A program made the translations under genes and the position numbers. Positions 3,428 to 32,154 of a stretch of DNA of 64,000 nt are shown in pieces; positions within the stretch are counted from its first letter, which is position 1, and the number at the start of each line of letters is the position of its first letter. The DNA comes from an uncultured archaeon (GTDB lineage Archaea > Nanobdellota > Nanobdellia > Pacearchaeales > GW2011-AR1), in the NCBI GenBank assembly GCA_963845205.1, contig CAWJRC010000004.1:185724-249723 (forward strand). The letters are read 5' to 3'. The notes beneath the pieces are model-generated. The model saw only the letters and a program-made list of their open reading frames with translations. It had not been told where the DNA came from and made no database searches.

Positions 3428-5311
3428 TTATCTCAATCTTAAAGTTTCCAAGGTTCTCGGAACATTCGTTTCAACCCTGTTAAGCTTGTAAAGTGCAGAA
3501 GCCAAGTCAAGAGATTTTGAAACTTCCCCATGATTAATGATTATTCTTTTTGATTTTGGACGCATGTTATTGAAAAAAGAAATCAGCTCGTTTCTTCCTG
3601 CGTGCGCACTGAAGCCAGTAATTGTTTCAACCTGCATTTCAATTTTTACTACTTCTTCTTTTCCTTCTACAATCATTCTTGTATCCTTTATTCCATCCTG
3701 AACCTGACGCCCAAGAGAGCCGACTCCCTGATAACAAACAAAGATTATTGAATTATTCTTATTTCCTGCAAATTCCCTGAAATATTCAACTGAAGCTCCG
3801 CCGACTAACATTCCGGAAGTTGCAAGAACAATGCACGGGCCTCCTTCGACTACATTTTTTCTTTCCTGAGGAGAACCAACTCTTACAAAAAATTCTGACA
3901 TGAACGGATTTTTTTCTGCAAAAACATTTGACTTAACCTGACTGCTCAAAAAATCAGGATATGCTGTATGAATTGCATTAATATCCCAAATCATTCCATC
4001 AATATAAATCGGAACCTTCTTCAATTTTCCTGAAGCCATTGCATCTTCAAGAATAAGCATTGTTTCCTGCGCTCTTCCTAACCCCAATTCAGGAATAAGA
4101 ACTTTGCCAGTTCTTTCTATGGTTGTATTTACCAGATCGATAAATTTATCTTCTGTATCTTTTCTCGGAGGGAAAATATCTGTTTTTGCCCCGTAAGTTG
4201 ATTCTGTTATTACGGATTCTACTCTTGGAAAAGAAGCAATTGCAGGATCCAGCAATCTTGAACGGGCATATTTGAAATCCCCTGTATAGAGAAGATTGTG
4301 CAATCCGTTTCCGATATTAAGATGAGACAATGCACCGCCCAATACGTGTCCTGAATTATAGAAAGTTAATCTAACATCCGGAGTTATATCTGTAACCTCG
4401 TTATAGTTCAGGCAAATGCTGTGCTTTACCATTTCTTTTATGTCTGTTGAATCAAACAATGGTTTCGTTGCCTGTTTATACGCAACTCCGATAAAGTCTA
4501 AAGCAAGCAAAGCAGCGATGTCTCTTGTCGGAGCAGTCATATAAACCGGGCCATCATAACCCATTTTATACAAATAAGGAAGAAGCCCGACATGATCAAG
4601 ATGTGCATGGGAAATTATTACAGCATCCAACTGGCTTAAATTAAATTCAGGAACATCCAGATAAGGAAATTTGTCATGCCCCTGAGAAGCAACATCAATA
4701 CCACAATCTAAAAGAATTTTTGAATTGGGTGTCTGCAATAAAAGACAGCTTCTTCCAACCTGCCTTCCTCCCCCTAAGAATGTCAGTCTTACCCATTCAT
4801 CAACTTTTTCAGGATTCCATTCTTTGTAGACTTTTTCTCCGATTGAATTCAAAAATTTTCTTCTATAATTGTTATTTGCGTAAAGAACTTCTCTTATATT
4901 ATCTGTAATTTTACTTTTTATTGAAGGAGAACGCTGAACCTGTGGTGTCCATAAAGTTGTATTCCTAATCTCGTTAAGAATACTTCCCATCTTACCTATA
5001 ACCATTCCTGGTCTTTTGGCTTCTATGATGACTATGCTTCTCTGAACCTCAAAAATCAGGTCTGTAATTTCGGCCTCTTCAGGAACAATTTTTCTTATTT
5101 CTGCGTCTGTTTTTTCCTGCTTTGTAAGGATTTTTTCATCAGCGCGAAGTTCGATTCTTTTTTTAACTTTATCAACAATTTCTTTTATTTTTGATTCTCC
5201 TTCTTTGAAGAATTTTTCATTATCTGTGTAAAGAACGATGTTTGCTCCTTCGAAGGTTGCATCAGTTATACTTTCATGTAACTGGTCTTTTATATTTTTC
5301 AAGATATCCAT
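3428..5311 (-). CDS. aCPSF1 (KH domains + metallo-beta-lactamase + beta-CASP ribonuclease)
   Basis: 627 aa with an N-terminal KH region, HAHLDHVG motif and beta-CASP body. Length is typical of archaeal CPSF1. Confidence 0.9.
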   Translation of the reverse strand: MDILKNIKDQLHESITDATFEGANIVLYTDNEKFFKEGESKIKEIVDKVKKRIELRADEKILTKQEKTDAEIRKIVPEEAEITDLIFEVQRSIVIIEAKRPGMVIGKMGSILNEIRNTTLWTPQVQRSPSIKSKITDNIREVLYANNNYRRKFLNSIGEKVYKEWNPEKVDEWVRLTFLGGGRQVGRSCLLLQTPNSKILLDCGIDVASQGHDKFPYLDVPEFNLSQLDAVIISHAHLDHVGLLPYLYKMGYDGPVYMTAPTRDIAALLALDFIGVAYKQATKPLFDSTDIKEMVKHSICLNYNEVTDITPDVRLTFYNSGHVLGGALSHLNIGNGLHNLLYTGDFKYARSRLLDPAIASFPRVESVITESTYGAKTDIFPPRKDTEDKFIDLVNTTIERTGKVLIPELGLGRAQETMLILEDAMASGKLKKVPIYIDGMIWDINAIHTAYPDFLSSQVKSNVFAEKNPFMSEFFVRVGSPQERKNVVEGGPCIVLATSGMLVGGASVEYFREFAGNKNNSIIFVCYQGVGSLGRQVQDGIKDTRMIVEGKEEVVKIEMQVETITGFSAHAGRNELISFFNNMRPKSKRIIINHGEVSKSLDLASALYKLNRVETNVPRTLETLRLR

Positions 5312-5334
5312 TTTGTTTTAAAAATAAAATAAGT

Positions 5335-6006
5335 TTAATCCTCTTTAAAGGAAGGTTGAATCCCTTGAGACACCACTTTTTTAATTCCTTTAGAAGTAAT
5401 TGTAAAAACGTCTATACCGAAACCGCTTCCGATATCCCTCTGAGTTGAAGACTTTACACATTCTGTAGCCAGCTTTATTCCCTCTTCAACAGACATTCCT
5501 TTTTTATACTGCCTTTCCAATAAACCAAGAACATAAGGCATTCCAGAGCCGAAGTTTGCATCATAATCTTCTACTTTTACAACACTTCCTGCTGGTTCGA
5601 TTGAATATAATTCTGTTGCTCCGTCTTCGTCAAAACCCCCAAGCAAAAATCCTGCCTGCATTGGAATCATTGAAGGCTGCCTTATTCCTGAATAAAGAAT
5701 ATTTGCCATTAAATTTGCTGCCTGTTTAACAGAAGGGCGTGTTCTGGATTTTAATTCTTTTAATTTTAATTCTGCCGGAAGCACTTTTTCTATTCTGTGA
5801 ATGTCTGAAACCATTCCTGTCCCTGAGATCATCAGGTAATCATTTATCTTTTTAGTTTTCTCAGAATTTTTGTTCATGACTATATTCCCTGCGGTGCTTT
5901 GCCTGTCAGAAGCCATTACAATTCCATCTTTGCAGACAATTCCAACTATAGTTGTTCCTGATTTCAGTATTGAATTTTTTAATTCAGTATCCATGTTAAT
6001 ATTCAT
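5335..6006 (-). CDS. psmB: proteasome beta subunit
   Basis: Propeptide followed by GTTIVGIVCKDGIVMASD, which contains the N-terminal Thr nucleophile. Confidence 0.9.
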   Translation of the reverse strand: MNINMDTELKNSILKSGTTIVGIVCKDGIVMASDRQSTAGNIVMNKNSEKTKKINDYLMISGTGMVSDIHRIEKVLPAELKLKELKSRTRPSVKQAANLMANILYSGIRQPSMIPMQAGFLLGGFDEDGATELYSIEPAGSVVKVEDYDANFGSGMPYVLGLLERQYKKGMSVEEGIKLATECVKSSTQRDIGSGFGIDVFTITSKGIKKVVSQGIQPSFKED

Positions 6007-6051
6007 AGAATAATTTCCTTATATTTCAGCAGTAAGGGGGGTTTATAAATT

Positions 6052-8106
6052 TTACGAAGAGGCTTCAACTTTTGTGATTCCGTTCTCTTTCTTAAAGCGT
6101 ATAACATTTTCAACGAAACCTTCAATCTTCTGCTCATGGGAAACAATGATAAGCTGTTTTATGTTTAGCTGCTGCAGAATATCCCTCATCTTATCCAGCT
6201 GCTGTTCGCTGAACCCGTCTGTCGGCTCGTCAAGAATTACCAGATCTCTTGTCTTTATTTTGCTCATCAGTGAGTTAATAACCTGATTAAGTGCGAGACG
6301 ATATGCAAGGGCAATCGCTGTCCTTTCTCCCCCTGACAGATAAGCATATTCAATTTCATAATCGCTCTGCTCAACTACTGGAGTGAAATCGTCGCTCAAT
6401 TTAACATTGAAAGTATCCGAGACAAGCATGTAAAACCATTCTGCAAAAAGTTTTGAAAATTCTGTCTTAAGCTTTATCATAACATTCTTCTCTATAAAAG
6501 AAATAAGAGTGGTAAACTGTTTTGAAAGCCAGTTTTCAAGTTCAGTTATGTAATTTAATTCAAGCTTTATTTTTTCTGTCCTTTCTATTTCTTTTTTCAG
6601 TTCTTCAATCTGCCTTGAAAAAACTTCTATTTCTTTTTTCAGTTCTGCAACTTTTATGTCAGCAAACCTTTCCTGCTTCAGAGCTTCATCAAGTTCTTTC
6701 TGTTTTGCATCAAAAAGGTTTCCAAATCTTACAAGGCTTAAAACAGAATTAGTAAGCAGGTCTATATGCTGCTTCAGGATTTCTACATCTTTCTCAAGGA
6801 GGATATTCAATTTTTCTATGTTCTGAATCTGAATTTTTTTCTCGTTAATATCCTGCAGCTTCATCTTCATGATTTTCAAATCTGTCAACTGATGTTCAGA
6901 TGAAGAAATTTCTTCTTCTATCTTTCTCAATTTTTCATTGACATCTTTTCTCTGAACTTCAAGTTCCTTCAACTGCTTATTCGCTTCGACATTATCTTCA
7001 TTAATTTTGTTCAGAACATTTGCCTTGTAAACAGCATCGACATTCTGCAAGCATGTCGGACAGATTTCAAGACTGGAGATTTTCTTCTCAATTTTTTTGC
7101 TATCATCTATTTTTAATAAAAGGGAATTCATTTTAGAACTTGTCTCGAGATTTATCCTGTTAAGTTTTTCTTTTTCAATTTTATTTATTGAAATAGCCTG
7201 CTCAAGATGCTTTATTTCTGATTCATCAAATTTTATCTTCTGAAGTTCTTCAATCTGGCTTTTTATCTGGGAAATAGTTTTATTGTTAGAAAAAATCGTG
7301 TCATTCTTTGTTATGATCATAATTTTTGTCTTTTCTGTTTCGCTCTGAAGTTTATTTTTCTCTTCGATTTTTTTTGAATATTCCTCTTTCTCTTCCTGAA
7401 TTTTTTTTCTTATTTCGGTCTTCTCAAACAATTCTTTCTGAATAGAAAAAAGATTAAGCTGTTTTTCCTCGAGTTCATTTTCCTTTGAAAGCAGATTGTA
7501 TTTAACCTGTTCAAGATTTGAGGTCATCCCTTCTTTTGATCTCTTTTCTTCCCTTAGTTTAGCAGTGAGGACAGCAATATTTTCAAGAATTGTCTTGTAT
7601 TTGTCAATCCCAAAAACATGCCTTAATGTGTTAATTCTCGTATCGGAATCTTCAAGGATTATCTGCTTCATCTCTTCCTGGGGGGTATATACTGTAAAAG
7701 TATAAAGCAAATTCTGCTTTTTTGCAAATTCGGAAGGATACCCCAAGAGTTCAAGAATTTTTCCTTTCAGTTCTGTGACAGACAATTCTCTTCTTTCATT
7801 GTTAACAGATATAGAACAGTAATCCTGAGAAATTGTCTTGCTTTTTTTCAAAGTTCTTTCTATTATTATCTCGTCTCCATCGATGTCAAATATTATTTTC
7901 ACTCCTCCGTCTTTTTTTCCATTTCTTAACAATGCAGAACCTCGCTGGCCGGGCTGCAATCCGAATAATGCAAATTCAATCGCAAGAAGAACTGAAGTTT
8001 TTCCCGAGCCGATGTCTCCTGAAAGGAGAGTTGAACCTTCTGTAAAATTTATTTCCTGATGCTCGTAACTCCTTATATTGTCCAAAATTATCTGTTTTAT
8101 TTTCAT
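6052..8106 (-). CDS. rad50: Rad50 ATPase (short coiled-coil version)
   Basis: Walker A GDIGSGKTS, CPTC zinc hook in the middle of a KE-rich coiled coil, signature LSGGERTAIALA, Walker B LVILDEPT. It sits immediately downstream of mre11. Confidence 0.9.
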   Translation of the reverse strand: MKIKQIILDNIRSYEHQEINFTEGSTLLSGDIGSGKTSVLLAIEFALFGLQPGQRGSALLRNGKKDGGVKIIFDIDGDEIIIERTLKKSKTISQDYCSISVNNERRELSVTELKGKILELLGYPSEFAKKQNLLYTFTVYTPQEEMKQIILEDSDTRINTLRHVFGIDKYKTILENIAVLTAKLREEKRSKEGMTSNLEQVKYNLLSKENELEEKQLNLFSIQKELFEKTEIRKKIQEEKEEYSKKIEEKNKLQSETEKTKIMIITKNDTIFSNNKTISQIKSQIEELQKIKFDESEIKHLEQAISINKIEKEKLNRINLETSSKMNSLLLKIDDSKKIEKKISSLEICPTCLQNVDAVYKANVLNKINEDNVEANKQLKELEVQRKDVNEKLRKIEEEISSSEHQLTDLKIMKMKLQDINEKKIQIQNIEKLNILLEKDVEILKQHIDLLTNSVLSLVRFGNLFDAKQKELDEALKQERFADIKVAELKKEIEVFSRQIEELKKEIERTEKIKLELNYITELENWLSKQFTTLISFIEKNVMIKLKTEFSKLFAEWFYMLVSDTFNVKLSDDFTPVVEQSDYEIEYAYLSGGERTAIALAYRLALNQVINSLMSKIKTRDLVILDEPTDGFSEQQLDKMRDILQQLNIKQLIIVSHEQKIEGFVENVIRFKKENGITKVEASS

Positions 8107-8107
8107 T

Positions 8108-9268
8108 TTAAAATTTCAAAATCCTTTGGGCTTCCTCCACAAGCCGGTTTGTAAAACTTTCAATTTTTTCACCTTCCTGTTTTTCTATTGAAAGGGAATG
8201 AATCAGCTGGGGGATAAATCTGTTAAAGTCCACGGGATTCTGCTGAGAATAAATATTGATCGTTTCCTCTTCGATATTGTCTATATTTTTTATTTCTATA
8301 GAACCCATTTCTATATCTTTTGTTTTCAGTTCATGTGTATTCTTCAAAAGGAAATATGCTTTTTTTCTCAATGCAAGCTCTTCTATCTGGCTAAATTTAA
8401 TATCCGAATTGCTGCCTGATTCAAGTTCCCCTTTTATTCTAAGAAGAATTATTTTATCTTCGACGTCTCTCTTTTCAATTTCGGAAAGAATCTGCTCGGT
8501 TGCGCTGACAGCACTTTTTATTTCAACTTCAATCAAAACAGTTTCTTTTAATTTAAGCTCAATTTTCTGAAGAGAGTTTCCCAATTCGGTATTTACAATG
8601 TAAAAACTTCCGTTCTGCAAATCTTCTAACTCCTGAAAGTTGTTCGGAAAAATAGGACCAGGGTAGACAAAATTCTGATATTGAAAGTCCATATGAAGAT
8701 GACCAAGCGCATAATAATCTGCTTTAGGAAGAAGTTCTGTTTCAAGCGAATCTACAGGCAGAGTTCCTTTTGCCTTGTCAATTGTGGTGTGAAGCATAAG
8801 AATTTTGAACAAGCCCGGACAGTCATTAAATTTTATTCTTCTCAGATCAGGAATTTCCAAACCAGATTTTTTTCCAGGATAACCATAAATTGCAACGCCA
8901 TTATATATTACGGGATTGAGGATAATATTCTCTTTTGTTTCCTCTATATTAGAAACATTTTTGCAGAATCCTGCTTTTTCCAGAACATCCAGAAAAGTTT
9001 TTCCTGAAACAGAATAATCATGGGAACCTGCAATTATGAAACACGGAATTTTTGCCTCTTTCAATCTTTTAAATTCCCCAAATGCGTCCCTTAAGATTTC
9101 TATCGGAGGATATGCAGAGTCAAACAAATCTCCTGCAATCAGAACAAAATCCAGTTTTTTGTCTATGCAGGTATCAATAGCTTTTTCAAATGACTTAAAA
9201 TTCAGATCCTGCAGGGGTTTTTGCTTCCAGCCTCCCAAATGAACATCAGAAATGTGTGCAAATCTCAT
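8108..9268 (-). CDS. mre11: Mre11 nuclease (calcineurin-like phosphoesterase)
   Basis: MRFAHISDVHLG, GDLFD, GSHD and GHLH phosphoesterase motifs. The stop lies 1 nt before the rad50 start. Confidence 0.9.
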   Translation of the reverse strand: MRFAHISDVHLGGWKQKPLQDLNFKSFEKAIDTCIDKKLDFVLIAGDLFDSAYPPIEILRDAFGEFKRLKEAKIPCFIIAGSHDYSVSGKTFLDVLEKAGFCKNVSNIEETKENIILNPVIYNGVAIYGYPGKKSGLEIPDLRRIKFNDCPGLFKILMLHTTIDKAKGTLPVDSLETELLPKADYYALGHLHMDFQYQNFVYPGPIFPNNFQELEDLQNGSFYIVNTELGNSLQKIELKLKETVLIEVEIKSAVSATEQILSEIEKRDVEDKIILLRIKGELESGSNSDIKFSQIEELALRKKAYFLLKNTHELKTKDIEMGSIEIKNIDNIEEETINIYSQQNPVDFNRFIPQLIHSLSIEKQEGEKIESFTNRLVEEAQRILKF

Positions 9269-9341: not shown

Positions 9342-10835
9342 ATGAGGTTCAACATACTTTTTGGAGGAAAAGCAGGGCAGGGGCCTAACTTACTTTCTGA
9401 AATTCTGGGAAAAGCTCTGATAAAGCAGGGGCATTATGTTTTTGTTTCAAGAGATTACCAATCTTTGATAAGAGGAGGACACAATTTTAATGTACTGACC
9501 TTTTCAGACGAGCCTGTGAACAGCAATGACTCACATTTTGATATGATAATTGCTTTGGATAAGAATACAATTAACCTTCATAAAAAAGATCTGAACAAAA
9601 AAGGAGTTATAGTTGAAGGCGAAGGAAAAGGAAATATGTATTTTGCAGGAAAAGTTTTCAGAAGCCTTTGCCTTGATTTTAATGTCCTGGAAGAAGAATT
9701 AAAAGGATTGAAAACAAGATTTGATGAAAATATGCTTGAAGCAAAAGAGGGATATAATGAAGAGAGCAAAGTTCTCTGCGAGGTTGTTTATAATGAGAAA
9801 GATTTGCGATTTGAAAACGGAAATCAGGGAATTGCCAACGGTGCAATAAAATCAGGGCTGGATGTTTATTATGCTTACCCGATGACTCCTGCTACTGGCG
9901 TCATGGATGAACTTGCGAAACAGCAGATTGAAAAAAATTTTCTTGTTGTTGAACTTGAAAGCGAAGTTTCTGTTATCAACACCGCACTTGGGAGCGCGAT
10001 GACAGGGGCAAAGGCTATGGTCGGAACTTCTGGCGGAGGCTTTGATTTAATGACTGAGGCTTTGAGCATGTCTGGAATTGCAGGAATTCCTATTGTAATC
10101 TATCTTGCTTCACGTCCCGGACCATCAACAGGAGTTGCAACTTATACTTCTCAGGGGGATTTGGAATTGGCAAGGCATTCTGCTCACGGAGAATTCCCAA
10201 GATTAATTTTAGCTCCGGGAAACCCAAAAGAATGCGCGGAATTAATGAGCCAAGCATTTTATTTCACGCAAAAATACAAGATTCCCGCAATTGTTTTAGG
10301 AGACAAACATTTGGCCGAAAGTTTTTTCAGTTCAGATGAAAAATCAGTTATAACTTCTTCAAAAAAATCAACTTCATTAGTCAGATATAACAGCTATGAA
10401 ACAGACAAATTCGGATGCGCAACAGAAGATCCCGAAATTATCACCAAAAATGTAAAGGACAGGAAAATAAAAGGAGAAGAAATTGAAAGAGAAGCGGGAA
10501 AATTCAGCTCTGTTAATGTTTACGGAAAAGAATCCGAGAATATAATTGTTTGCTGGGGAAGCACAAAGGGGGCGATTCTGGATTCTGTCGAAGATCTTGA
10601 TGTCAAGGTTCTCCAGTTTTTGTATCTTGATCCATTTCCAACCCAGATAAAAAAAGATCTTGAAGAAAAAAATATAATATTAATAGAAAATAATTCAACA
10701 GGACAGTTAGGAAAATTGATTATGGAAAAAACAGGGATTTATATTCCTGAAAAAAATAAAATTTTAAAATATGATGGAAGGCCGTTCCTGGCTGATGAAT
10801 TAAGAATTGAAATTAAAAGGAGATTAAAAAAATGA
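9342..10835 (+). CDS. 2-oxoacid:ferredoxin oxidoreductase, fused gamma-alpha subunit
   Basis: N-terminal gamma-type GGKAGQG domain followed by an alpha-subunit body (YPMTPAT...). ATGA-coupled to the beta subunit. Confidence 0.85.
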   Translation: MRFNILFGGKAGQGPNLLSEILGKALIKQGHYVFVSRDYQSLIRGGHNFNVLTFSDEPVNSNDSHFDMIIALDKNTINLHKKDLNKKGVIVEGEGKGNMYFAGKVFRSLCLDFNVLEEELKGLKTRFDENMLEAKEGYNEESKVLCEVVYNEKDLRFENGNQGIANGAIKSGLDVYYAYPMTPATGVMDELAKQQIEKNFLVVELESEVSVINTALGSAMTGAKAMVGTSGGGFDLMTEALSMSGIAGIPIVIYLASRPGPSTGVATYTSQGDLELARHSAHGEFPRLILAPGNPKECAELMSQAFYFTQKYKIPAIVLGDKHLAESFFSSDEKSVITSSKKSTSLVRYNSYETDKFGCATEDPEIITKNVKDRKIKGEEIEREAGKFSSVNVYGKESENIIVCWGSTKGAILDSVEDLDVKVLQFLYLDPFPTQIKKDLEEKNIILIENNSTGQLGKLIMEKTGIYIPEKNKILKYDGRPFLADELRIEIKRRLKK

Positions 10836-11668
10836 AAGACGAACTTAATACACCTACGATTCCGACATGGTGTCCGGGATGCTATAATTTTCAGATACTT
10901 GCAGCAGTAAAGAATGTAGTTTCAGAACAATTAAAAGCGGGAAAGAAAAAAGAAGATTTTGCCCTCGTTTCAGGAATCGGATGCCATGGTAAAATCTTTG
11001 ATTATTTTAATTTGAACGGATTAAATACTCTTCACGGAAGAGTTATTCCTGCATGCACAGGAATTAAACTTGGGAATCCAAGTCTTACTGTTCTTGGCTT
11101 CAGCGGAGACGGCGATGCATATGCAGAAGGAATGGAACATTTGATTCACGCTGCGAGATATAATTCTGATTTCAAGTATTTCGTTCACAACAATCAGGTT
11201 TTTGCTTTGACAGGAGGGCAGCCTACACCGACAACAGAAATCGGGTACAAAGACAAAACAACTCCTTTAGGAGTAAAGCTTCAGCCTATGAATCCTATAA
11301 AATTAATGCTTGCTGCAGGAGCAGGTTTTGTCGCGAGAGTATTTTCAGATATAGATCAGGTAGAATCTGTTTTCAGGGAAGCATTAAAATACAAAGGGTT
11401 TGCATTCATAGAAATTATCCAGCCGTCAGTAATTTTCCACACTGATAAAGGCTATAAGGAGATAAGTTATTCTCTTGAAAAAGAAGGGCATGATAAAACT
11501 AATTTTGAAGCAGCATGGAAAAAAGCCGATGAATTCGATTACAACACCGTGAAAAAAATCCCATTAGGAATTTTTTATCAGAAAGAAAAGCCTGTTTTTG
11601 AAGATTTATTTCCCCAGCTTGTTGATTTGAAGAAGAATAAAATGGGCTGGAAAGATATTAAGAGATAA
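10832..11668 (+). CDS. 2-oxoacid:ferredoxin oxidoreductase, beta (TPP-binding) subunit
   Basis: WCPGCYNF Cys motif and GDGDAYAEG TPP-binding motif. Confidence 0.85.
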   Translation: MKDELNTPTIPTWCPGCYNFQILAAVKNVVSEQLKAGKKKEDFALVSGIGCHGKIFDYFNLNGLNTLHGRVIPACTGIKLGNPSLTVLGFSGDGDAYAEGMEHLIHAARYNSDFKYFVHNNQVFALTGGQPTPTTEIGYKDKTTPLGVKLQPMNPIKLMLAAGAGFVARVFSDIDQVESVFREALKYKGFAFIEIIQPSVIFHTDKGYKEISYSLEKEGHDKTNFEAAWKKADEFDYNTVKKIPLGIFYQKEKPVFEDLFPQLVDLKKNKMGWKDIKR

Positions 11669-23273: not shown

Positions 23274-23537
23274 ATGATAAGTGTAGAGACAAAACTTGAT
23301 GAATCGAAATTGAAAAGAATTTGCAAGCATGCCAAATTGGAGACTATAAGAAAAGAACAGGCTATATTCTGCTGTGTAGATTGCGGAATACCAATTCCCA
23401 ATAATCTTTCTCTGACGTATATAAAAGAAAAACGAACCTGTATTGCCACAAATCTTGATAATTATAGGTCTCTTGGAATTGGGATAAACATTGAAGAGAT
23501 GAAAAAATGTTGTGGTAATCCTTACAAAGAGAAATAA
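23274..23537 (+). CDS. Cys-rich mini-protein (tandem paralog 1)
   Basis: 87 aa. Cys spacing and the CG.P.P / C.NPY blocks are shared with 23604..23849, and the two upstream regions are similar (AGCATAG...AAATATTTATA). Confidence 0.45.
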   Translation: MISVETKLDESKLKRICKHAKLETIRKEQAIFCCVDCGIPIPNNLSLTYIKEKRTCIATNLDNYRSLGIGINIEEMKKCCGNPYKEK

Positions 23538-23603: not shown

Positions 23604-23849
23604 ATGAATATAGAAGGAATAAGCAAGCTATGTTCCAATATGGAATTAAGAAATTTGAAAAAAATAGGCGATGTTATCCTGTGCGGGAAAAAAGAATATG
23701 GTTGCCCTCTTCCGTTCAAGATTCCTGAGATAGAATATAGAAAAATATGCATTGTTATGAGTCTTTACAGAACAAACGAAGGGAGTGTAAGAATTATAGA
23801 TATAGATGAAAAGAAGACAAATAATTGCCCTTATATAAATAAGGAATAA
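23604..23849 (+). CDS. Cys-rich mini-protein (tandem paralog 2)
   Basis: 81 aa. See paralog 1. Confidence 0.45.
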   Translation: MNIEGISKLCSNMELRNLKKIGDVILCGKKEYGCPLPFKIPEIEYRKICIVMSLYRTNEGSVRIIDIDEKKTNNCPYINKE

Positions 23850-24071
23850 TTATTTTTTCTGTGGCCTTTCAACTTTTGCACCGCATTCATCACAAAATTT
23901 CTGGGAATCATCCATTATTTTTCCGCAGCCTTTGCACTTAAGTATAACCTGCTTTGATTCTATTACTGGCTTGTATCCAGGTCTCCCAGACAATAATTTT
24001 CCCAATGCATTTGAAAAAGAAGCCTCTTGCTGAATTTCATTCATCCTCTTTTGCAAATTATTTGCATCCAT
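23850..24071 (-). CDS. zinc-ribbon protein
   Basis: C-terminal CKGCGK...CDECGAK double CxxC. Confidence 0.55.
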   Translation of the reverse strand: MDANNLQKRMNEIQQEASFSNALGKLLSGRPGYKPVIESKQVILKCKGCGKIMDDSQKFCDECGAKVERPQKK

Positions 24072-24154: not shown

Positions 24155-24178
24155 TATTCTAAAATATATTTTAGAATA
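24155..24178. promoter_or_regulatory. perfect 24-bp palindrome TATTCTAAAATATATTTTAGAATA centred on a TATA-like core
   Basis: It equals its own reverse complement and ends 38 nt upstream of the ATG at 24216. Confidence 0.6.
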
Positions 24179-24215
24179 GATATTTGCTTAAAAAGAAAAG
24201 AGAAATCCTTTCTTT

Positions 24216-25628
24216 ATGGTGGGAGAAAGGGAGGAAAAAGAGAATTCTAAGTTCCCAAAAAGATATGCAATAAGCTGTGCTCAAGCCATGGGTGATGAAC
24301 ATCCAAAAGGCTATCCCAATACCAATCTTATTGAGAGTTTAGAAAAATATTGTAAAGTAAATAATTCAAAACTCTATATTATTCCGACAACAGGAAAAAG
24401 TGCTAAAGAAACAAATTTACATCCGCTTTTAGAAAGAAGGGACGATATATTATGTGATAAAAGAGGAAGAATGAAAAATGAAAAATTAAATGATAATTTT
24501 CAAATATCAGATATGTTTGTACCACCCCAAAACGTTGACCCTGCAAGCGGAAGAGGAAGATTTGTACAAAGAGATAAAACTTTAATAATTACACATCCGA
24601 AACAGAGATTCAAAGCTTTTCCAAATAGTAATTTTGATTTACCAAAAATTTTAATTGGAACCGGCGCAGTTACTCATCCAAATTATAATGAGATGAATCA
24701 TCGAGGAGATGCTGCAAAAAGAGATCATACCTATGGATTTGTCGTGGCTGAAATTGTTAATGATAAAATTTTTCATTTTAGACAAGTAAGAGCTCTGCAA
24801 AACGGAAAATTTATTGATTTAGGGTGGGAATTCAACGGAAAAGAAAAACCTAGGAAGGCTAAACTCGAAGCTCTCGTTTTGGGAGATTTGCATTGGGGGG
24901 ATACAGATCCAATAGTGCAAAAAGCAAATTATGAAATGATTGACGAATTTAATCCTGAAAGACTTTTCATTCATGACTTATTTAACGGGCATAGCGTGAA
25001 TCATCATAATATCGGAAAACTCGTTACATTAGTAACAGAAGTTTTTCAACGTGGAAGAAATGATCTGAAAGAGGAATTAGAAAAATGTTATTTAGAACTT
25101 TGCTCTTTGTCTAAGGCTATGGGAAGAAAAAATGTATTTGTTGTTGCAAGTAACCACAATGAATTTCTTAACAGATATCTCGAAGAGGTAAGATTAAAAG
25201 ATGATCCCGGAAATGCGTATATCGCTGCGAAATTGATGGGGGATATGATGGACAAAGAAGATCCTGTTGAATCAGGCATCAGGAGAATAGGAAAAATTCC
25301 CAATAACGTAATCTTTTTAAAAAGAGATGAAGACTACAAAGTTTTGGGCTGGCAATTGGGAAGTCATGGAGACAAAGGAATGAACGGAAGCAAGAAAGCA
25401 AGCATGATGTCGAGAGAATTTTCGCACGGAAAAAGTATTACAGGACATGCACATACACCAGAAATTTTAAGAAATACATACGTCGTCGGGACAAGCACTT
25501 ACCTGAATCTCCCCTATACAAGGGGGCAAGCATCCTCTTGGATGAATACAAATGGATTTTTATGGGAAAATGGGACAGCGCAACTTGTTAATATAATCTA
25601 TGGTAACTGGAGATTAAAGGATGAATAA
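24216..25628 (+). CDS. calcineurin-like metallophosphoesterase with about 210-aa uncharacterised N-terminal domain
   Basis: Ordered phosphoesterase motifs LGDLHWGD, HDLFNGH, ASNHNEF, GSHGDKG and TGHAHTPE. Confidence 0.65.
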   Translation: MVGEREEKENSKFPKRYAISCAQAMGDEHPKGYPNTNLIESLEKYCKVNNSKLYIIPTTGKSAKETNLHPLLERRDDILCDKRGRMKNEKLNDNFQISDMFVPPQNVDPASGRGRFVQRDKTLIITHPKQRFKAFPNSNFDLPKILIGTGAVTHPNYNEMNHRGDAAKRDHTYGFVVAEIVNDKIFHFRQVRALQNGKFIDLGWEFNGKEKPRKAKLEALVLGDLHWGDTDPIVQKANYEMIDEFNPERLFIHDLFNGHSVNHHNIGKLVTLVTEVFQRGRNDLKEELEKCYLELCSLSKAMGRKNVFVVASNHNEFLNRYLEEVRLKDDPGNAYIAAKLMGDMMDKEDPVESGIRRIGKIPNNVIFLKRDEDYKVLGWQLGSHGDKGMNGSKKASMMSREFSHGKSITGHAHTPEILRNTYVVGTSTYLNLPYTRGQASSWMNTNGFLWENGTAQLVNIIYGNWRLKDE

Positions 25629-26067
25629 AGAATTAGAAAAAAGAATCGAAGAAGTTAATCTTTTGATAAAAGATAACAGCATTTATTTTGCACATCCAGT
25701 TAATTTCTATAATACTCATTTAGAAAAATGTTTAATCGAAAGAATAAATTTATGTTTTCCGCAATATAATTTAGAAAATCCAAATCAAAAACACCATCAG
25801 GAAAATTATAAATTCTGGAAAGAAAAAACAGAAAGCGGAATGAAATATTATTTTGATATTGTTTTGCCGAAGATGAAAGCGGGAATAGGATTGCCTTTTG
25901 AGGATAATATGTATGGAGCAGGAGTTTTTGGTGAATTAGAATTTATTTCTAACAGAGGAAATCCCATTTTGGAAATTAATCATGAAGGATTAATTAAAAG
26001 GATAAAAAGATTAGATCCTACAAGAAAGCTATCTGTTGAAGAAACGAGAAAAAGAGTTTACGGATAA
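25621..26067 (+). CDS. nucleoside 2-deoxyribosyltransferase-like (DUF1937/DUF4406-like) protein, tentative
   Basis: IYFAHP near the N-terminus and GAGVFGELEF...GNPI near the C-terminus resemble the NDT-like fold signature. The start overlaps the upstream gene by 8 nt. Confidence 0.4.
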   Translation: MNKELEKRIEEVNLLIKDNSIYFAHPVNFYNTHLEKCLIERINLCFPQYNLENPNQKHHQENYKFWKEKTESGMKYYFDIVLPKMKAGIGLPFEDNMYGAGVFGELEFISNRGNPILEINHEGLIKRIKRLDPTRKLSVEETRKRVYG

Positions 26068-26259
26068 TTATAATTTCTTCTCCAATTTTCCTTTTTCTTG
26101 ATTATTAAATTCTCTTATTTCCTGAAAAATATAGTTCAATGTTTTAACCAGATATTTTCCTGAAACGACTGTTTTAATTTCAAGGCCAGGACGAACTAAC
26201 GGAGAGGATATTGTAATTGTATAAGTTTCATTCCCCGGAAGAAGTTTATCATCGCCCAT
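26068..26259 (-). CDS. hypothetical protein
   Basis: 63-aa ORF, no recognised motif. Confidence 0.3.
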   Translation of the reverse strand: MGDDKLLPGNETYTITISSPLVRPGLEIKTVVSGKYLVKTLNYIFQEIREFNNQEKGKLEKKL

Positions 26260-26299: not shown

Positions 26300-26749
26300 T
26301 CAAATTTTAAAGAATAACCAGCCGTTTTTATTTCCGTAATCTGTTTTTATCAATGCATATTTTCCTTCCAGTTTTTTTCCGTGAAATTCTACAATTATCT
26401 TCTTCGGATTTTTTTCGAGCAAATCATATTTTCCCTTATCCCAAATAATCACTTTTCCTGCTCCATAATTTCCTTCTGGAATTGTTCCATGAAATTTTGC
26501 ATATTCTAACGGGTGATCTTCAACGTGCACTGCAAGGCGTTTTATTCCTTTCGACACGGGAGGAATTTTTGGAACAGCCCATGATTTCAAAACTCCATCC
26601 ATCTCAAGACGCAGATCCCAATGCAAATGAGAAGCATGATGTTCATGAATTACAAATTTTCTCGATGGAGATTTTAAAATTTTTTCTTTTCCTTCCGGCT
26701 CAGGAGTTTTATTGAACTTTCTCTTTTTTTTATATTGGATTAAAGACAT
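26300..26749 (-). CDS. stand-alone LigD-type 3'-phosphoesterase (PE) domain protein
   Basis: KRKFNKTPEP...FVIHEHHASHLHWDLRLE...LKSWAVPK...GTIPEGNYGAGKVIIWDKG matches the LigD PE domain signature. Confidence 0.8.
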   Translation of the reverse strand: MSLIQYKKKRKFNKTPEPEGKEKILKSPSRKFVIHEHHASHLHWDLRLEMDGVLKSWAVPKIPPVSKGIKRLAVHVEDHPLEYAKFHGTIPEGNYGAGKVIIWDKGKYDLLEKNPKKIIVEFHGKKLEGKYALIKTDYGNKNGWLFFKI

Positions 26750-27113: not shown

Positions 27114-27343
27114 CTTTTTTCTTGAAAACTTTGTAATTAGAATGAGTGCTTTAAGATATACAAATTGTAACATTAAAGTATGATGTATGTAGAAGTAGTC
27201 ATTTTAGTTGTAATTCTAATATTGATAGTCAAAGCCAATAGTAAGGATTAGGAATTTTGTGTGAAGTATTTTCTTTCTTACATAAGAAAATGCGTAATAG
27301 ATTTTTTGTTGATTTATCGACGGAAAATATGATATTATTTAAA

Positions 27344-28774
27344 TCCAGTTGATCCTGCTGGCGGCTGCGGCTCTCTGGTTTGCACTTAGACATGCAAGTC
27401 TTTCGCGAGAAGGCGAACTGCTCAGTAACACGTAGCTAATCTACCCTTAAGTCAAGGATAACCTCGGGAAACTGAGGATAATACTTGATAAGAGATATAC
27501 CCTGGAAAGATTTATCTCATAAATTCGAGCTTAAGGATGAGGCTGCGGCGGATTAGGTTGTTGGCGGGGTAATAGCCCACCAAGCCTGTGATCCGTAAGG
27601 GCTCTTAGCGGAGAGGCCCTGAGAGGGAATCTGAGACACTATTCCCAGCCCTACGGGGTGCAGCAGGTAGGAATCTTTTGCAATGCGCGCAAGCGTGACA
27701 AAGCGAGCCAGAGTGCTTTTCAATTGAAAAGCTTTTGCTAAATCTAAAAAGTTTGGCGAATAAGGACTGGGTAAGACTAGTGCCAGCCGCCGCGGTAATC
27801 CTAGCGGTCCAAGTCGCAGCCATCATTATTGGGTCTAAAACATCCGTAGCTTGCTTAATAAGTTCCATGTGAAATCTTAACTCTTAAGGTTAAGGCGTGC
27901 AAGGAGTACTGTTAGGCTAGAGACTGGAAGACGTAAGAAGTATGTTCAAAGTAACGGTAAAATGTGTTAATCTTGGACAGACTAACAACAGCGAAGGCAT
28001 CTTACGAGGACAGTTCTGACAGTAAAGGATGAAGGCTAGGGGCGCGAAAGGGATTAGATACCCCTGTAGTCCTAGCAGTAAACACTGCGCACTAAACATT
28101 AGTACCTCCTCGAGAGGTATTGGTGCTGTAGGGAAGCCGAAGAGTGCGCTACCTGGGAAGTATAGCCGCAAGGCCGAAACTTAAAGGAATTGGCGGGGAG
28201 ACACTACAACGGGTGACGCGTGCGGTTCAATTAGATTCTACACCGTGAACCTCACCAGGACCGACAGCAGGATGAAGGTCAGTCTGAAGGGCTTACCTGA
28301 CACGCTGAGAGGAGTTGCATGGCCGACGTCAGCCTGTGCTGTGAAGTGACCTGTTAAATCAGGTAACAGGCAAGACCCACATGTATATTTACTATGTGTA
28401 CAATATACAGATCGCCTTAGTAATAAGGATGAAAGTGTGGGCTACGTTAGGTGAGTACGGCCTAAATGCCCTGGGCGACACGCGCGCGGCAATGGTGAAT
28501 ACAGTGAGACGCAACTCCGAAAGGAGGAGCCAATCCCATAAAGTTCATCTCAGTTCAGATTGAGGTTTGAAACCCAACCTCATGACGCTGGAATCCGTAG
28601 TAATCGTTTGTTAGCAGCGAACGGTGAATAGGTCCCTGTCTCTTGCACACACTGCCCGTCAAACCAACCGAGTTATGTTATGATGAAACGTTTCGACGGA
28701 GAATCTTAGCATGACAAGGTAGGTTAAGTCGTCACAAGGTATCTGTAGGGGAACCTGCAGATGGATCACCTCCT
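27344..28774 (+). rRNA. rrs: 16S rRNA (about 1.43 kb, short)
   Basis: 5' TCCAGTTGATCCTGCTGGCGG; GTGCCAGCCGCCGCGGTAA at 27780-27798; GGATTAGATACCCC; AAACTTAAAGGAATTGGCGGGG; GCACACACTGCCCGTCA; 3' GGATCACCTCCT. Confidence 0.95.
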
Positions 28775-28897
28775 ATATATTATTGATTTGATGATCTTGA
28801 ATTTACAGCGAGATTATTTCTACATACTATTCTATTTATCGTCGGAGAAAAAGAAAATAGAAAACATTAAAAATGATTACGGGCTAAAATATTTTAA

Positions 28898-28968
28898 GGG
28901 CCTGTAGTCCAACGGCAGAACACCTGTCTTGCACACAGGAGTTCCGGGTTCAATTCCCGGCAGGTCCA
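28898..28968 (+). tRNA. tRNA-Ala (UGC) in the 16S-23S spacer, no intron, no encoded CCA
   Basis: Cloverleaf folds by hand with acceptor GGGCCTG/CAGGTCC including G3:U70, anticodon loop CTTGCAC and T-arm CCGGGTTCAATTCCCGG. Confidence 0.95.
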
Positions 28969-29100
28969 TTTAATGAATTCTCGACGTAAAATTACAAATC
29001 ATATTCAACATAAAGTTGATAACTGACGACAAAGTCGTCAACATCGTCGGTGAGAGATGTAAAAATCTCTTATCGCTTCGAGAGTTAATACTCAATGAAA

Positions 29101-29113
29101 TAAGCACTGGAAA
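29101..29113 (+). other. 5' arm of outer 23S processing stem (pairs with 31992-32004)
   Basis: TAAGCACTGGAAA is the exact reverse complement of TTTCCAGTGCTTA at 31992-32004. A similar 16S stem pairs 27185-27194 (GTATGTAGAA) with 28818-28827 (TTCTACATAC). Confidence 0.6.
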
Positions 29114-29159
29114 TATCCCACTTAATTAAAATATTATTTGGAAAATTAAAACTTAGAAA

Positions 29160-31978
<2,819 letters not shown>

Positions 31979-32154
31979 TCTAAAAAAGATTTTTCCAGTG
32001 CTTATTTTGTTTTGATGTTTATGATTCTAAAAATTTATTGATTATCATTCTCAAGCTGAAGTTGTAATTGAGATACTTAGAAAATTATTTTCTAAAAAAC
32101 AATTAAGAAAAAATCACCAAAAAAAGACCTAGATATTTTTGGATACTCTTTTTT

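Follow-up and report, generated by a model that had tools for sequence, protein, structure and literature searches.

What purpose might a relative of the protein with which phage T5 destroys the chromosome of its host serve in the chromosome of a cell? The question is raised by two overlapping genes in a stretch of 64,000 nucleotides, hereafter the window, from an uncultured archaeon of the order Pacearchaeales (GenBank assembly GCA_963845205.1, contig CAWJRC010000004.1, positions 185,724 to 249,723 of the forward strand), the genome of which amounts to ~695 kb and is 88% complete. The window is identified as archaeal DNA by its RNase P and by a 16S-tRNA-23S operon of archaeal type (27342-31979), and the closest named homologues belong to the DPANN lineages Pacearchaeota, Woesearchaeota, and Nanoarchaeota. 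The answer favoured here, with a probability put roughly at 0.45, is that the pair is part of a cytoplasmic cassette that would degrade scavenged DNA and salvage its deoxynucleotides. The pair and a third gene recurring beside it are the following (positions are those of the window, and labels such as L004 or G009 below are our own handles):

24216 to 25628, + strand: A1-like protein, 470 aa, with an A1-family N-terminal domain (residues ~1-210) and a metallophosphoesterase domain (residues ~215-470).
25621 to 26067, + strand: 148-aa protein with a three-layer alpha/beta fold resembling nucleoside 2'-deoxyribosyltransferase (NDT), DNPH1, and TIR proteins; candidate N-glycosidase or deoxyribosyltransferase.
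26300 to 26749, - strand: stand-alone LigD-type 3'-phosphoesterase (PE) protein, convergent with the pair.

The two open reading frames (ORFs) of the pair share a strand and overlap by 8 nt (ATGAATAA), both being recovered exactly as they had been delimited in the first-pass annotation, i.e., a description generated by a model from the sequence. In this annotation, the larger product was viewed as a metallophosphoesterase with a novel N-terminal half of about 210 aa without recognisable relatives, a view that is not borne out. In the PHROGs database, residues 6-466 match positions 78-541 of the 542-position profile phrog_1745 “DNA transfer protein” (E 1.1e-85), the N-terminal half of the protein corresponding to the conserved core of the family. 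By tblastn, 1131 phage records match the protein, 587 of them covering at least 80% of the query and T5-like phages with the annotation “A1” being included; by BLASTP, residues 1-465 align with residues 112-582 of a T5-like A1 (26% identity, E 3e-37) and the entire protein with a protein of Ochrobactrum phage OC (33% identity, E 1e-76). Because both the profile and the pairwise alignments with A1 span it, the N-terminal half is a domain specific to the A1 family, and the 470-aa protein is homologous to phage T5 A1 over its entire core, N-terminal half included. In T5, A1 is a pre-early protein, reported on genetic grounds to be both required and sufficient for the degradation of the host chromosome in vivo (preprint 10.64898/2026.04.02.716235). 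The DPANN homologues, as well as those from bacteria of the candidate phyla radiation (CPR), start directly at the core of the family and lack the phage N-terminal extension of ~80-140 aa (profile positions 1-77 of phrog_1745), and no signal peptide was found in any of those examined. Searches of Pfam, NCBIfam, and PDB sequences with the 470-aa protein returned nothing; the calcineurin-like model PF00149 misses it, no Pfam match being obtained at E <= 0.1, and a genome-wide search with this model found six other genes, the A1-like gene not being among them.

The assignment of the C-terminal half to the calcineurin-like metallophosphoesterases is nonetheless well founded, both on fold and on a five-motif active site. 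All five motifs announced by the first-pass annotation are present, with the metal-binding patterns DxH, HD, NH, H, and HxH, and the metal-binding residues, namely D224, H226, D254, N313, H314, H384, H411, and H413, do not vary across 42 homologues and align with those of T5-like A1. In the N-terminal domain, the residues invariant over the same set include N92, P104, K129, Q130, T149, G150, P155, Y157, H171, and R189. The AlphaFold (AF2) model of the protein is of high confidence, with a predicted local distance difference test (pLDDT) of 91.7 and a predicted template modelling score (pTM) of 0.92. With Foldseek, its C-terminal half matches aq_1956, Vps29, and LpxH (probability 0.97-0.99), Mre11 (0.87), purple acid phosphatase, and the B subunit of Pol-alpha, and its N-terminal half is covered by no solved structure. 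A Lys/Glu-rich insertion of ~70 aa lies in the N-terminal domain of some homologues, between the positions of window residues 89 and 90 (L126:6477-8108, G251, G215, G562, and G255).

The smaller protein had been likened to the NDT-like families DUF1937 and DUF4406 on the basis of motifs, of which IYFAHP and GAGVFGELEF are indeed present. Pfam, NCBIfam, PADLOC, and the sequences of the PDB yielded no match for it, its best PHROG being non-significant (E 0.078). A word-based search yielded 63 relatives, and when 1.84 billion representative proteins were searched with a profile, 1017 clusters were obtained at E <= 1e-3, 462 of them reaching E <= 1e-10. As such, the 148-aa protein founds a large family, of ~1000 clusters at 50% identity, for which neither Pfam nor NCBIfam holds a model. 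In the AF2 model (pLDDT 96.6, pTM 0.90), the fold is well defined, and the list of Foldseek matches is coherent, with weak E-values (8e-4 to 0.1): in the PDB, ThsB/TIR proteins, NDTs, and DNPH1 are matched with a probability of 0.84-0.99 and template modelling (TM) scores of 0.41-0.55, the ranges being 0.84-1.0 and 0.41-0.56 when viral models are included. ThsB/TIR structures come at the top (9b7d, 8fz9, and 8wcf), NDTs 8pqr, 8pqt, and 9emx score TM 0.47-0.55 with a probability of 0.96-0.99, and DNPH1 reaches 0.84-0.97, the E-values for NDT and DNPH1 ranging from 8e-3 to 0.1. Among viral models (BFVD), the best match is a DUF4406 protein (E 8.7e-4), followed by DUF1937, NDT, and SLOG proteins.

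Across 93 diverse members of the family, Y22, F23, H25, P26, E35, P54, Y76, F93, G101, E105, L137, and R145 are conserved in at least 90%, T142 is invariant, and D95 is the majority residue. In the predicted model, strand 1 ends with Y22, and strand 3 is followed by a loop and a helix that hold D95 and E105, a placement that resembles the Y24/D80/E104 triad of DNPH1 as far as secondary-structure positions, compared without superposition, are concerned. With this triad, DNPH1 cleaves deoxynucleoside monophosphates to the base and deoxyribose 5-phosphate via a glycosyl-Glu intermediate (PMC10603095; PMC3834327). At the level of sequence, no bridge to the catalogued families could be built: PF05014 matched 0 of 36 members and, marginally, 1 of 93 (E 0.013); PF14359 (DUF4406) matched only two of the 93, at E 0.05; hhalign gave a probability of 2% against a neighbouring PF05014-like family and no similarity to the DUF4406 neighbour of CPR loci; and phmmer and profile searches of PDB chains had YtoQ as their best result, at E 0.98. 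Owing to these failures, the 148-aa protein is placed in neither PF05014 nor DUF4406. The earlier NDT-like assignment stands with respect to the fold, including DUF4406 as the best viral match, and falls with respect to sequence; from its model, the 148-aa protein is probably an enzyme of NDT/DNPH1/TIR-like fold acting on N-glycosidic bonds.

The company kept by this domain is that of nucleotide metabolism. It is found fused to an NT5C 5'-deoxyribonucleotidase, a PHP phosphoesterase, or an AAA_33 (P-loop) kinase, and where the gene stands apart from the A1-like gene, its neighbours encode thymidine kinase, adenylate kinase, a PF05014-like/NDT-like protein, or HAD hydrolases. Fusions (P0190, P0200, P0312, and P0238) also comprise a 1010-aa protein with AAA_33 and ABC1 kinase-like domains and one with Peptidase_M50. 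A separate family of ~200 aa, seemingly a tandem duplication of an NDT-like half, recurs near the cluster (L071:7217-7834, L004:10954-11556, L034, and L060), with a weak match to PF05014 (E 6e-5) in the first half only; a single-half copy is present in the window's own genome (C4:80431-80685).

Regarding the association of the two genes, seven independent look-ups were seeded with homologues of the 148-aa protein and 59 loci with the A1-like protein. From the 148-aa side, an A1-like gene was found on the same strand within 700 nt in four of the seven (L002, L004, L006, and L126); in the other three, the gene occupies the slot downstream of rps2 with the A1-like gene absent (L125), adjoins an integrase-like gene (L127), or lies in a bacterial context (L128), and these three are joined by G009 as carriers of a 148-aa gene without A1-like partner. 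From the A1-like side, the 148-aa gene adjoins in 5/59 loci, and LigD-PE lies within 3 kb in 9/59. Altogether, the pair was encountered in nine distinct loci of Pacearchaeota and Woesearchaeota, always on one strand, in both gene orders and often with overlaps of 4-47 nt, PE being within ~3 kb in eight of them. The PE neighbour in the window passes the curated equivalog-domain model TIGR02777 (192.7 bits for a cut-off of 144) and matches PF13298 at E 6e-40. In L004, the gene order is PE, DeoC, 148-aa, HDIG, A1-like, and ASCH, the DeoC scoring 149 bits with an equivalog model whose cut-off is 117. Both genes of the pair are present in 3 of the 201 genomes of the order, for 0.18 expected (hypergeometric p = 2.5e-4, with kinship ignored), on different contigs in two of the three. 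In four loci of CPR type, plus L008 and its copies L009 and L010, a divergent gene recognised by Pfam as DUF4406 stands beside the A1-like gene, which is an independent pairing.

The co-occurrence of the two genes and an NDT-like fold of the smaller protein, on which the first-pass annotation had staked its proposal, were thus both found, the former in part only since no more than 5/59 of the loci retrieved with the A1-like protein have the 148-aa gene beside it. The linkage is real but facultative, and specific to cellular lineages. The obligate co-occurrence expected of a toxin-antitoxin pair is not observed on these counts, the 148-aa gene also occurring alone.

Cellular relatives of the A1-like protein number in the hundreds, with 42-75% identity, in DPANN archaea and in CPR bacteria (Buchananbacteria, Portnoybacteria, and Falkowbacteria), and more distant ones (27-30%) occur in Bdellovibrionota/Oligoflexia. 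The gene is carried by 9 of the 201 genomes of the order, 3 of the 7 of the genus, and 21 of the 401 of the phylum, with an open frame in every genomic copy found. In a maximum-likelihood tree of 105 A1-family sequences, the DPANN and CPR proteins all fall into one clade of 60 rows, with a support of 100 in the Shimodaira-Hasegawa-like approximate likelihood ratio test (SH-aLRT), outside of which stand three phage groups, i.e., (i) the T5-like one, (ii) that of Flavobacterium podophages, and (iii) a large clade of IMG/VR and Ochrobactrum-phage sequences. This cellular clade is deep and diverse, identities going down to ~32%; the sister of the window protein is one CPR group (60% identity), and CPR sequences are nested twice among those of archaea, so that two or more transfers from DPANN to CPR are implied. 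The loci L074 and L075, which bear a “phage_isolate” label in this tree, are cellular. Five IMG/VR contigs also lie inside the cellular clade and, given that they carry viral genes (terminase-like, tail-like, GH25 lysozyme, HNH, and integrase), the short form of A1 circulates in viruses as well. The viral connection proposed by the first-pass annotation is therefore upheld for the 470-aa protein, as a member of a phage family, and not for the locus, where no integrase, capsid, or terminase was found near the pair among the window ORFs compared with Pfam and PHROGs; a provirus reading is rejected on the same ground, no viral hallmark genes flanking the pair.

The A1-like proteins of Bdellovibrionota/Oligoflexia (L064, L065, L068, L069, and L070; ORFs at ~5100-7600) are much longer, ~700-850 aa, and have a signal-peptide-like N-terminus in five cases out of five, from which they are probably secreted and may act as enzymes degrading the DNA of prey. 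Each of these long proteins contains repeated helix-turn-helix-like modules, and upstream of each gene lies one for a protein of 362-391 aa that has a DxDGT HAD-like motif and is hydrophobic at its N-terminus. Twelve DPANN loci (L011, L024, L025, L029, L030, L032, L037, L051, L055, L058, L063, and L066) encode an AbrB/SpoVT plus PhoU-type regulator ~1 kb from the A1-like gene, the PhoU match (E 4e-4 to 9e-4) falling slightly short of the Pfam cut-off; genes for a trypsin-like protease and a PIN_9 protein are also close by, and such regulators may hint at phosphate-linked regulation. Several public metagenome-assembled genomes with a gene of DPANN/CPR type (L013, L028, L024, L030, and others) are labelled “uncultured Gammaproteobacteria” or “uncultured Methanosarcinales,” labels that look unreliable because the A1-like sequences and their gene contexts are CPR- or DPANN-like.

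In the salvage cassette envisaged here, the A1-like protein would be a Mn/Mg-dependent cytoplasmic DNase or exonuclease acting on DNA acquired from a host or the environment and releasing deoxynucleotides; the convergent LigD-type PE would strip blocking 3'-phosphates off DNA ends; the 148-aa protein would cleave or exchange the bond between base and deoxyribose, supplying free bases for salvage and deoxyribose (5-phosphate); and, in some relatives, an HD phosphohydrolase and DeoC could carry the sugar into central metabolism. Enzymatic activities and substrates are inferred throughout, as are the origin of the DNA and the sparing of the cell's own chromosome. The reading itself is based on observed homology and fold, on the conservation of catalytic-type residues, on a linkage that recurs, on the distribution among taxa, and on the lack of secretion signals. 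It is favoured since the protein is homologous over its full length to an A1 that degrades host DNA, the metal-binding residues are invariant and all genomic copies intact, and the fold of the 148-aa protein is NDT/DNPH1-like with fusions and neighbours that process nucleotides. It is likewise favoured by the nine pair loci, eight with PE and one with DeoC and HDIG, by the CPR pairing of A1-like with DUF4406 genes, and by the excess of co-occurrence in the order. DPANN, CPR, and Bdellovibrionota all live off other cells, which also speaks for it, as do the signal-peptide-like Bdellovibrionota versions, the Mre11-Rad50 operon that the cell has elsewhere (see below), and the position of phage A1 genes near nucleotide-processing ones, T5-like phages having dmp and an Elemovirus a MazG-like gene in this position.

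Several points weigh against this reading. Homologues of DeoC, thymidine kinase, and HD proteins were not found in the window's genome (88% complete) with the seeds used, ~40 of the 59 A1-like loci have no partner gene, and partner genes were found in 0 of 46 viral A1-like loci. The NDT-like assignment of the 148-aa protein rests on fold and motif position, every sequence-level test having failed. The evidence on T5 A1 comes from genetics (10.64898/2026.04.02.716235). In the cytoplasm, a DNase for which no inhibitor is known ought to endanger the chromosome of the cell itself, and a search for sequencing runs holding the locus found DNA metagenomes of low share and no RNA runs. Lastly, carriage by ~5% of the genomes of the phylum is as compatible with an accessory or conflict gene as with a metabolic one. 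A wider scenario built on salvage is possible and, on balance, doubtful: a destroyer of host DNA of viral type would have been adopted by DPANN archaea, and by some CPR bacteria through transfer, and wired to an uncatalogued N-glycosidase family and PE, sometimes also DeoC, into a “DNA-eating” pathway feeding cells unable to make nucleotides, with Bdellovibrionota independently secreting a version against their prey.

The same genes could be read as a module for the processing and repair of DNA ends, where the A1-like protein would trim damaged ends in the manner of Mre11/SbcD, PE would heal 3'-phosphate or 3'-ribonucleotide ends, and the 148-aa protein would remove damaged bases or sanitise damaged deoxynucleotides, as DNPH1 does with 5-hydroxymethyl-deoxyuridine monophosphate (hmdUMP). 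LigD-PE is an end-healing enzyme and the most frequent partner (17 loci in one tally), Mre11 is among the Foldseek matches of the A1-like protein, the proteins are cytoplasmic, and ASCH and Ada-type zinc-finger genes are near in L004 and L126; DNPH1 is besides described as a nucleotide-pool sanitiser (PMC10603095). This explanation is nevertheless unlikely, as the closest characterised homologue, T5 A1, destroys DNA, the DeoC, thymidine kinase, adenylate kinase, and NT5C partners point to nucleotide metabolism, and a wider spread than ~5% of genomes would be expected of repair genes. Moreover, the genome already has Mre11-Rad50, and a search of it found no Ku, which weakens any role in non-homologous end joining. 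The canonical Mre11-Rad50 operon (6052-9268, - strand) encodes a Mre11-like protein of 386 aa (PF00149) and a Rad50-like protein of 684 aa (SMC_N/SbcC), and with this operon present 15 kb away, the A1-like protein is not the cell's Mre11.

Alternatively, the locus might be a conflict system, for antiviral defence or toxin-immunity, with the A1-like DNase as toxic effector and the 148-aa protein either as sensor or signal generator, like ThsB in Thoeris, or as translationally coupled immunity partner. The top PDB matches of the 148-aa fold being ThsB/TIR, the toxicity of A1 in E. coli (10.64898/2026.04.02.716235), the overlap of the genes, which is typical of toxin-antitoxin pairs, the patchy distribution with inter-domain transfer, the five true viral contigs nested in the cellular clade, and the integrase-like gene beside one 148-aa homologue (L127) would all agree with it. 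Most A1-like genes nonetheless have no partner, the 148-aa gene is often alone near housekeeping or salvage genes, gene order is variable, fusion partners are metabolic enzymes, and the slot that holds the cluster is a conserved one among housekeeping genes, not a defence island. The screen with PADLOC 2.0, finally, gave no significant match, the best for the 470-aa protein being PDC-M01B (E 0.0044) and LmuA (E 0.026), over short stretches, and nothing being found for the 148-aa protein, so that the defence-type module put forward in the first-pass annotation finds no support there and a conflict system is judged improbable. More improbable still is that the genes are leftover cargo from viruses of DPANN or CPR, kept without dedicated cellular role in a recombination-prone slot by the rRNA operon. 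Viral relatives within the clade, an A1 family that is overwhelmingly phage-borne, and the patchy distribution would suit such an origin, but copies are all intact with invariant catalytic residues, the cellular clade is deep and diverse, the linkage of the A1-like gene with PE and with the 148-aa gene is kept through rearrangements, and the pair is flanked by no other viral genes.

The location of the cluster bears on the question, too. It had been described as a non-syntenic island, which does not apply as other genomes carry the cluster in the identical slot between rps2 and the 16S rRNA gene, i.e., in at least six loci (the window, L002, L006, L012, L042, and L048). Where the flank was fetched, rps2 follows a conserved Rrp4-Rrp41-Rrp42-RpoK-enolase block, and the rps2-16S interval is a recurrent variable slot; G+C across the locus (~31-33%) is similar to that of the flanks. 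In one Pacearchaeota relative, a gene for an RVT_1 reverse transcriptase is inserted into this block between rpoK and enolase (L125:275-1273), a candidate for a group II intron or for an element of retron type. The remaining features around the pair are as follows:

23850 to 24071, - strand: zinc-ribbon protein, 72-73 aa, divergent from the A1-like gene (PF12773, E 2e-7).
24155 to 24178, strandless: perfect 24-nt palindrome with halves TATTCTAAAATA and TATTTTAGAATA, occurring once in the window (0.01 expected by chance) and nowhere else in the 695-kb genome.
24187 to 24194, + strand: TATA-box-like CTTAAAAA, ~25 nt before the ATG.
26068 to 26259, - strand: candidate ORF of 62 aa, directly adjoining the stop codon of the 148-aa gene.

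The perfect palindromic 24-mer ahead of the pair, reported by the first-pass annotation, is thereby confirmed. When the upstream regions of six related loci were aligned, whichever gene came first, ATATAT was invariant, which corresponds to the centre of the palindrome (24164-24169, at ~-50 from the start codon), and so was TTTAAAAA at ~-25 (TTAAA.A). From the sequence, the latter is the probable archaeal TATA box of a near-leaderless transcript of the A1-like and 148-aa genes, and ATATAT might be an upstream promoter element common to these loci. The possibility of a conserved palindromic operator was considered and rejected, only the central ATATAT being conserved and the arms being perfect in this genome only. 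A scan for sigma-70 promoters and intrinsic terminators returned fewer sites than shuffled controls, its models being bacterial and uninformative for an archaeon.

A small zinc-ribbon gene also accompanies the cluster in L002, L012, L042, and L048. Between rps2 and this gene, two tandem genes encode Cys-rich mini-proteins (23274-23537, 87 aa, and 23604-23849, 81 aa) with no significant family match, phrog_54 being the best at E 0.048, and the candidate 62-aa ORF matched no family in Pfam, PHROGs, or NCBIfam. Further away, subunits of pyruvate:ferredoxin oxidoreductase are encoded at 9342-11668, following the Mre11-Rad50 operon.

The superfamilies to which both proteins belong were already known; what is new is that the A1 family has a cellular clade with partners that recur, and that the 148-aa proteins form a family without a model. 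In the searchable literature, no paper was found in which genes termed A1-like or “DNA transfer protein” are connected with the DPANN or the CPR, and according to the recent preprint, the A1 family is seemingly confined mainly to Demerecviridae (10.64898/2026.04.02.716235), a range that is here widened. Since ultra-small symbiotic archaea and bacteria lack the pathways of nucleotide biosynthesis, how they acquire nucleotides is an open question, and a chromosomal relative of T5 A1 linked to deoxynucleotide-processing genes constitutes a concrete, cloneable candidate pathway. With the phage extension absent, the compact cellular A1 of 450-470 aa may be easier to study, and the 148-aa family offers strongly conserved catalytic-type residues together with informative domain fusions.

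Compared with known systems, the closest is T5 A1 itself, with which the DPANN protein shares the A1-specific N-terminal domain and a metallophosphoesterase domain with all metal-binding motifs, as well as the vicinity of nucleotide-processing genes. It differs in being encoded chromosomally, between rps2 and the rRNA operon, with no viral hallmark genes nearby and no virus, in lacking the phage-type N-terminal extension, in belonging to a separate clade (SH-aLRT 100) of DPANN, CPR, and five viral contigs, and in having no A2 or Dmp homologue as partner; the HD protein was compared with Dmp and the 148-aa family with A2, and homology was rejected in both cases. With Mre11/SbcD, which act on DNA, it has in common the calcineurin-like metallophosphoesterase fold, but it is invisible to PF00149, no Rad50-like partner is adjacent, and the genome has a Mre11-Rad50 of its own.

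As for the 148-aa protein, it has the fold class of DNPH1/Rcl and of the NDTs (the PF05014 superfamily, including DUF4406 and DUF1937), a Tyr after strand 1 and an Asp/Glu pair near the expected positions of the triad, and its family is associated with deoxynucleotide enzymes; the differences lie in the Asp-Glu spacing, in the lack of detectable sequence homology to catalogued members, and in residues invariant specifically in this family, namely H25, P26, P54, T142, and R145. In the ThsB/TIR fold, a catalytic Glu cleaves the N-glycosidic bond, and ThsB of Thoeris and bacterial TIR proteins are related to the 148-aa protein by fold, as its top structural matches in the PDB; the window locus, however, has neither a ThsA-like effector nor a PADLOC match, and the neighbours and fusion partners of the 148-aa family are metabolic. 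The PE neighbour, lastly, is a stand-alone archaeal LigD-PE that exceeds the curated cut-off of TIGR02777, but it occurs without Ku and without LigD ligase or polymerase and is instead linked recurrently to an A1-like protein and a protein of NDT fold.

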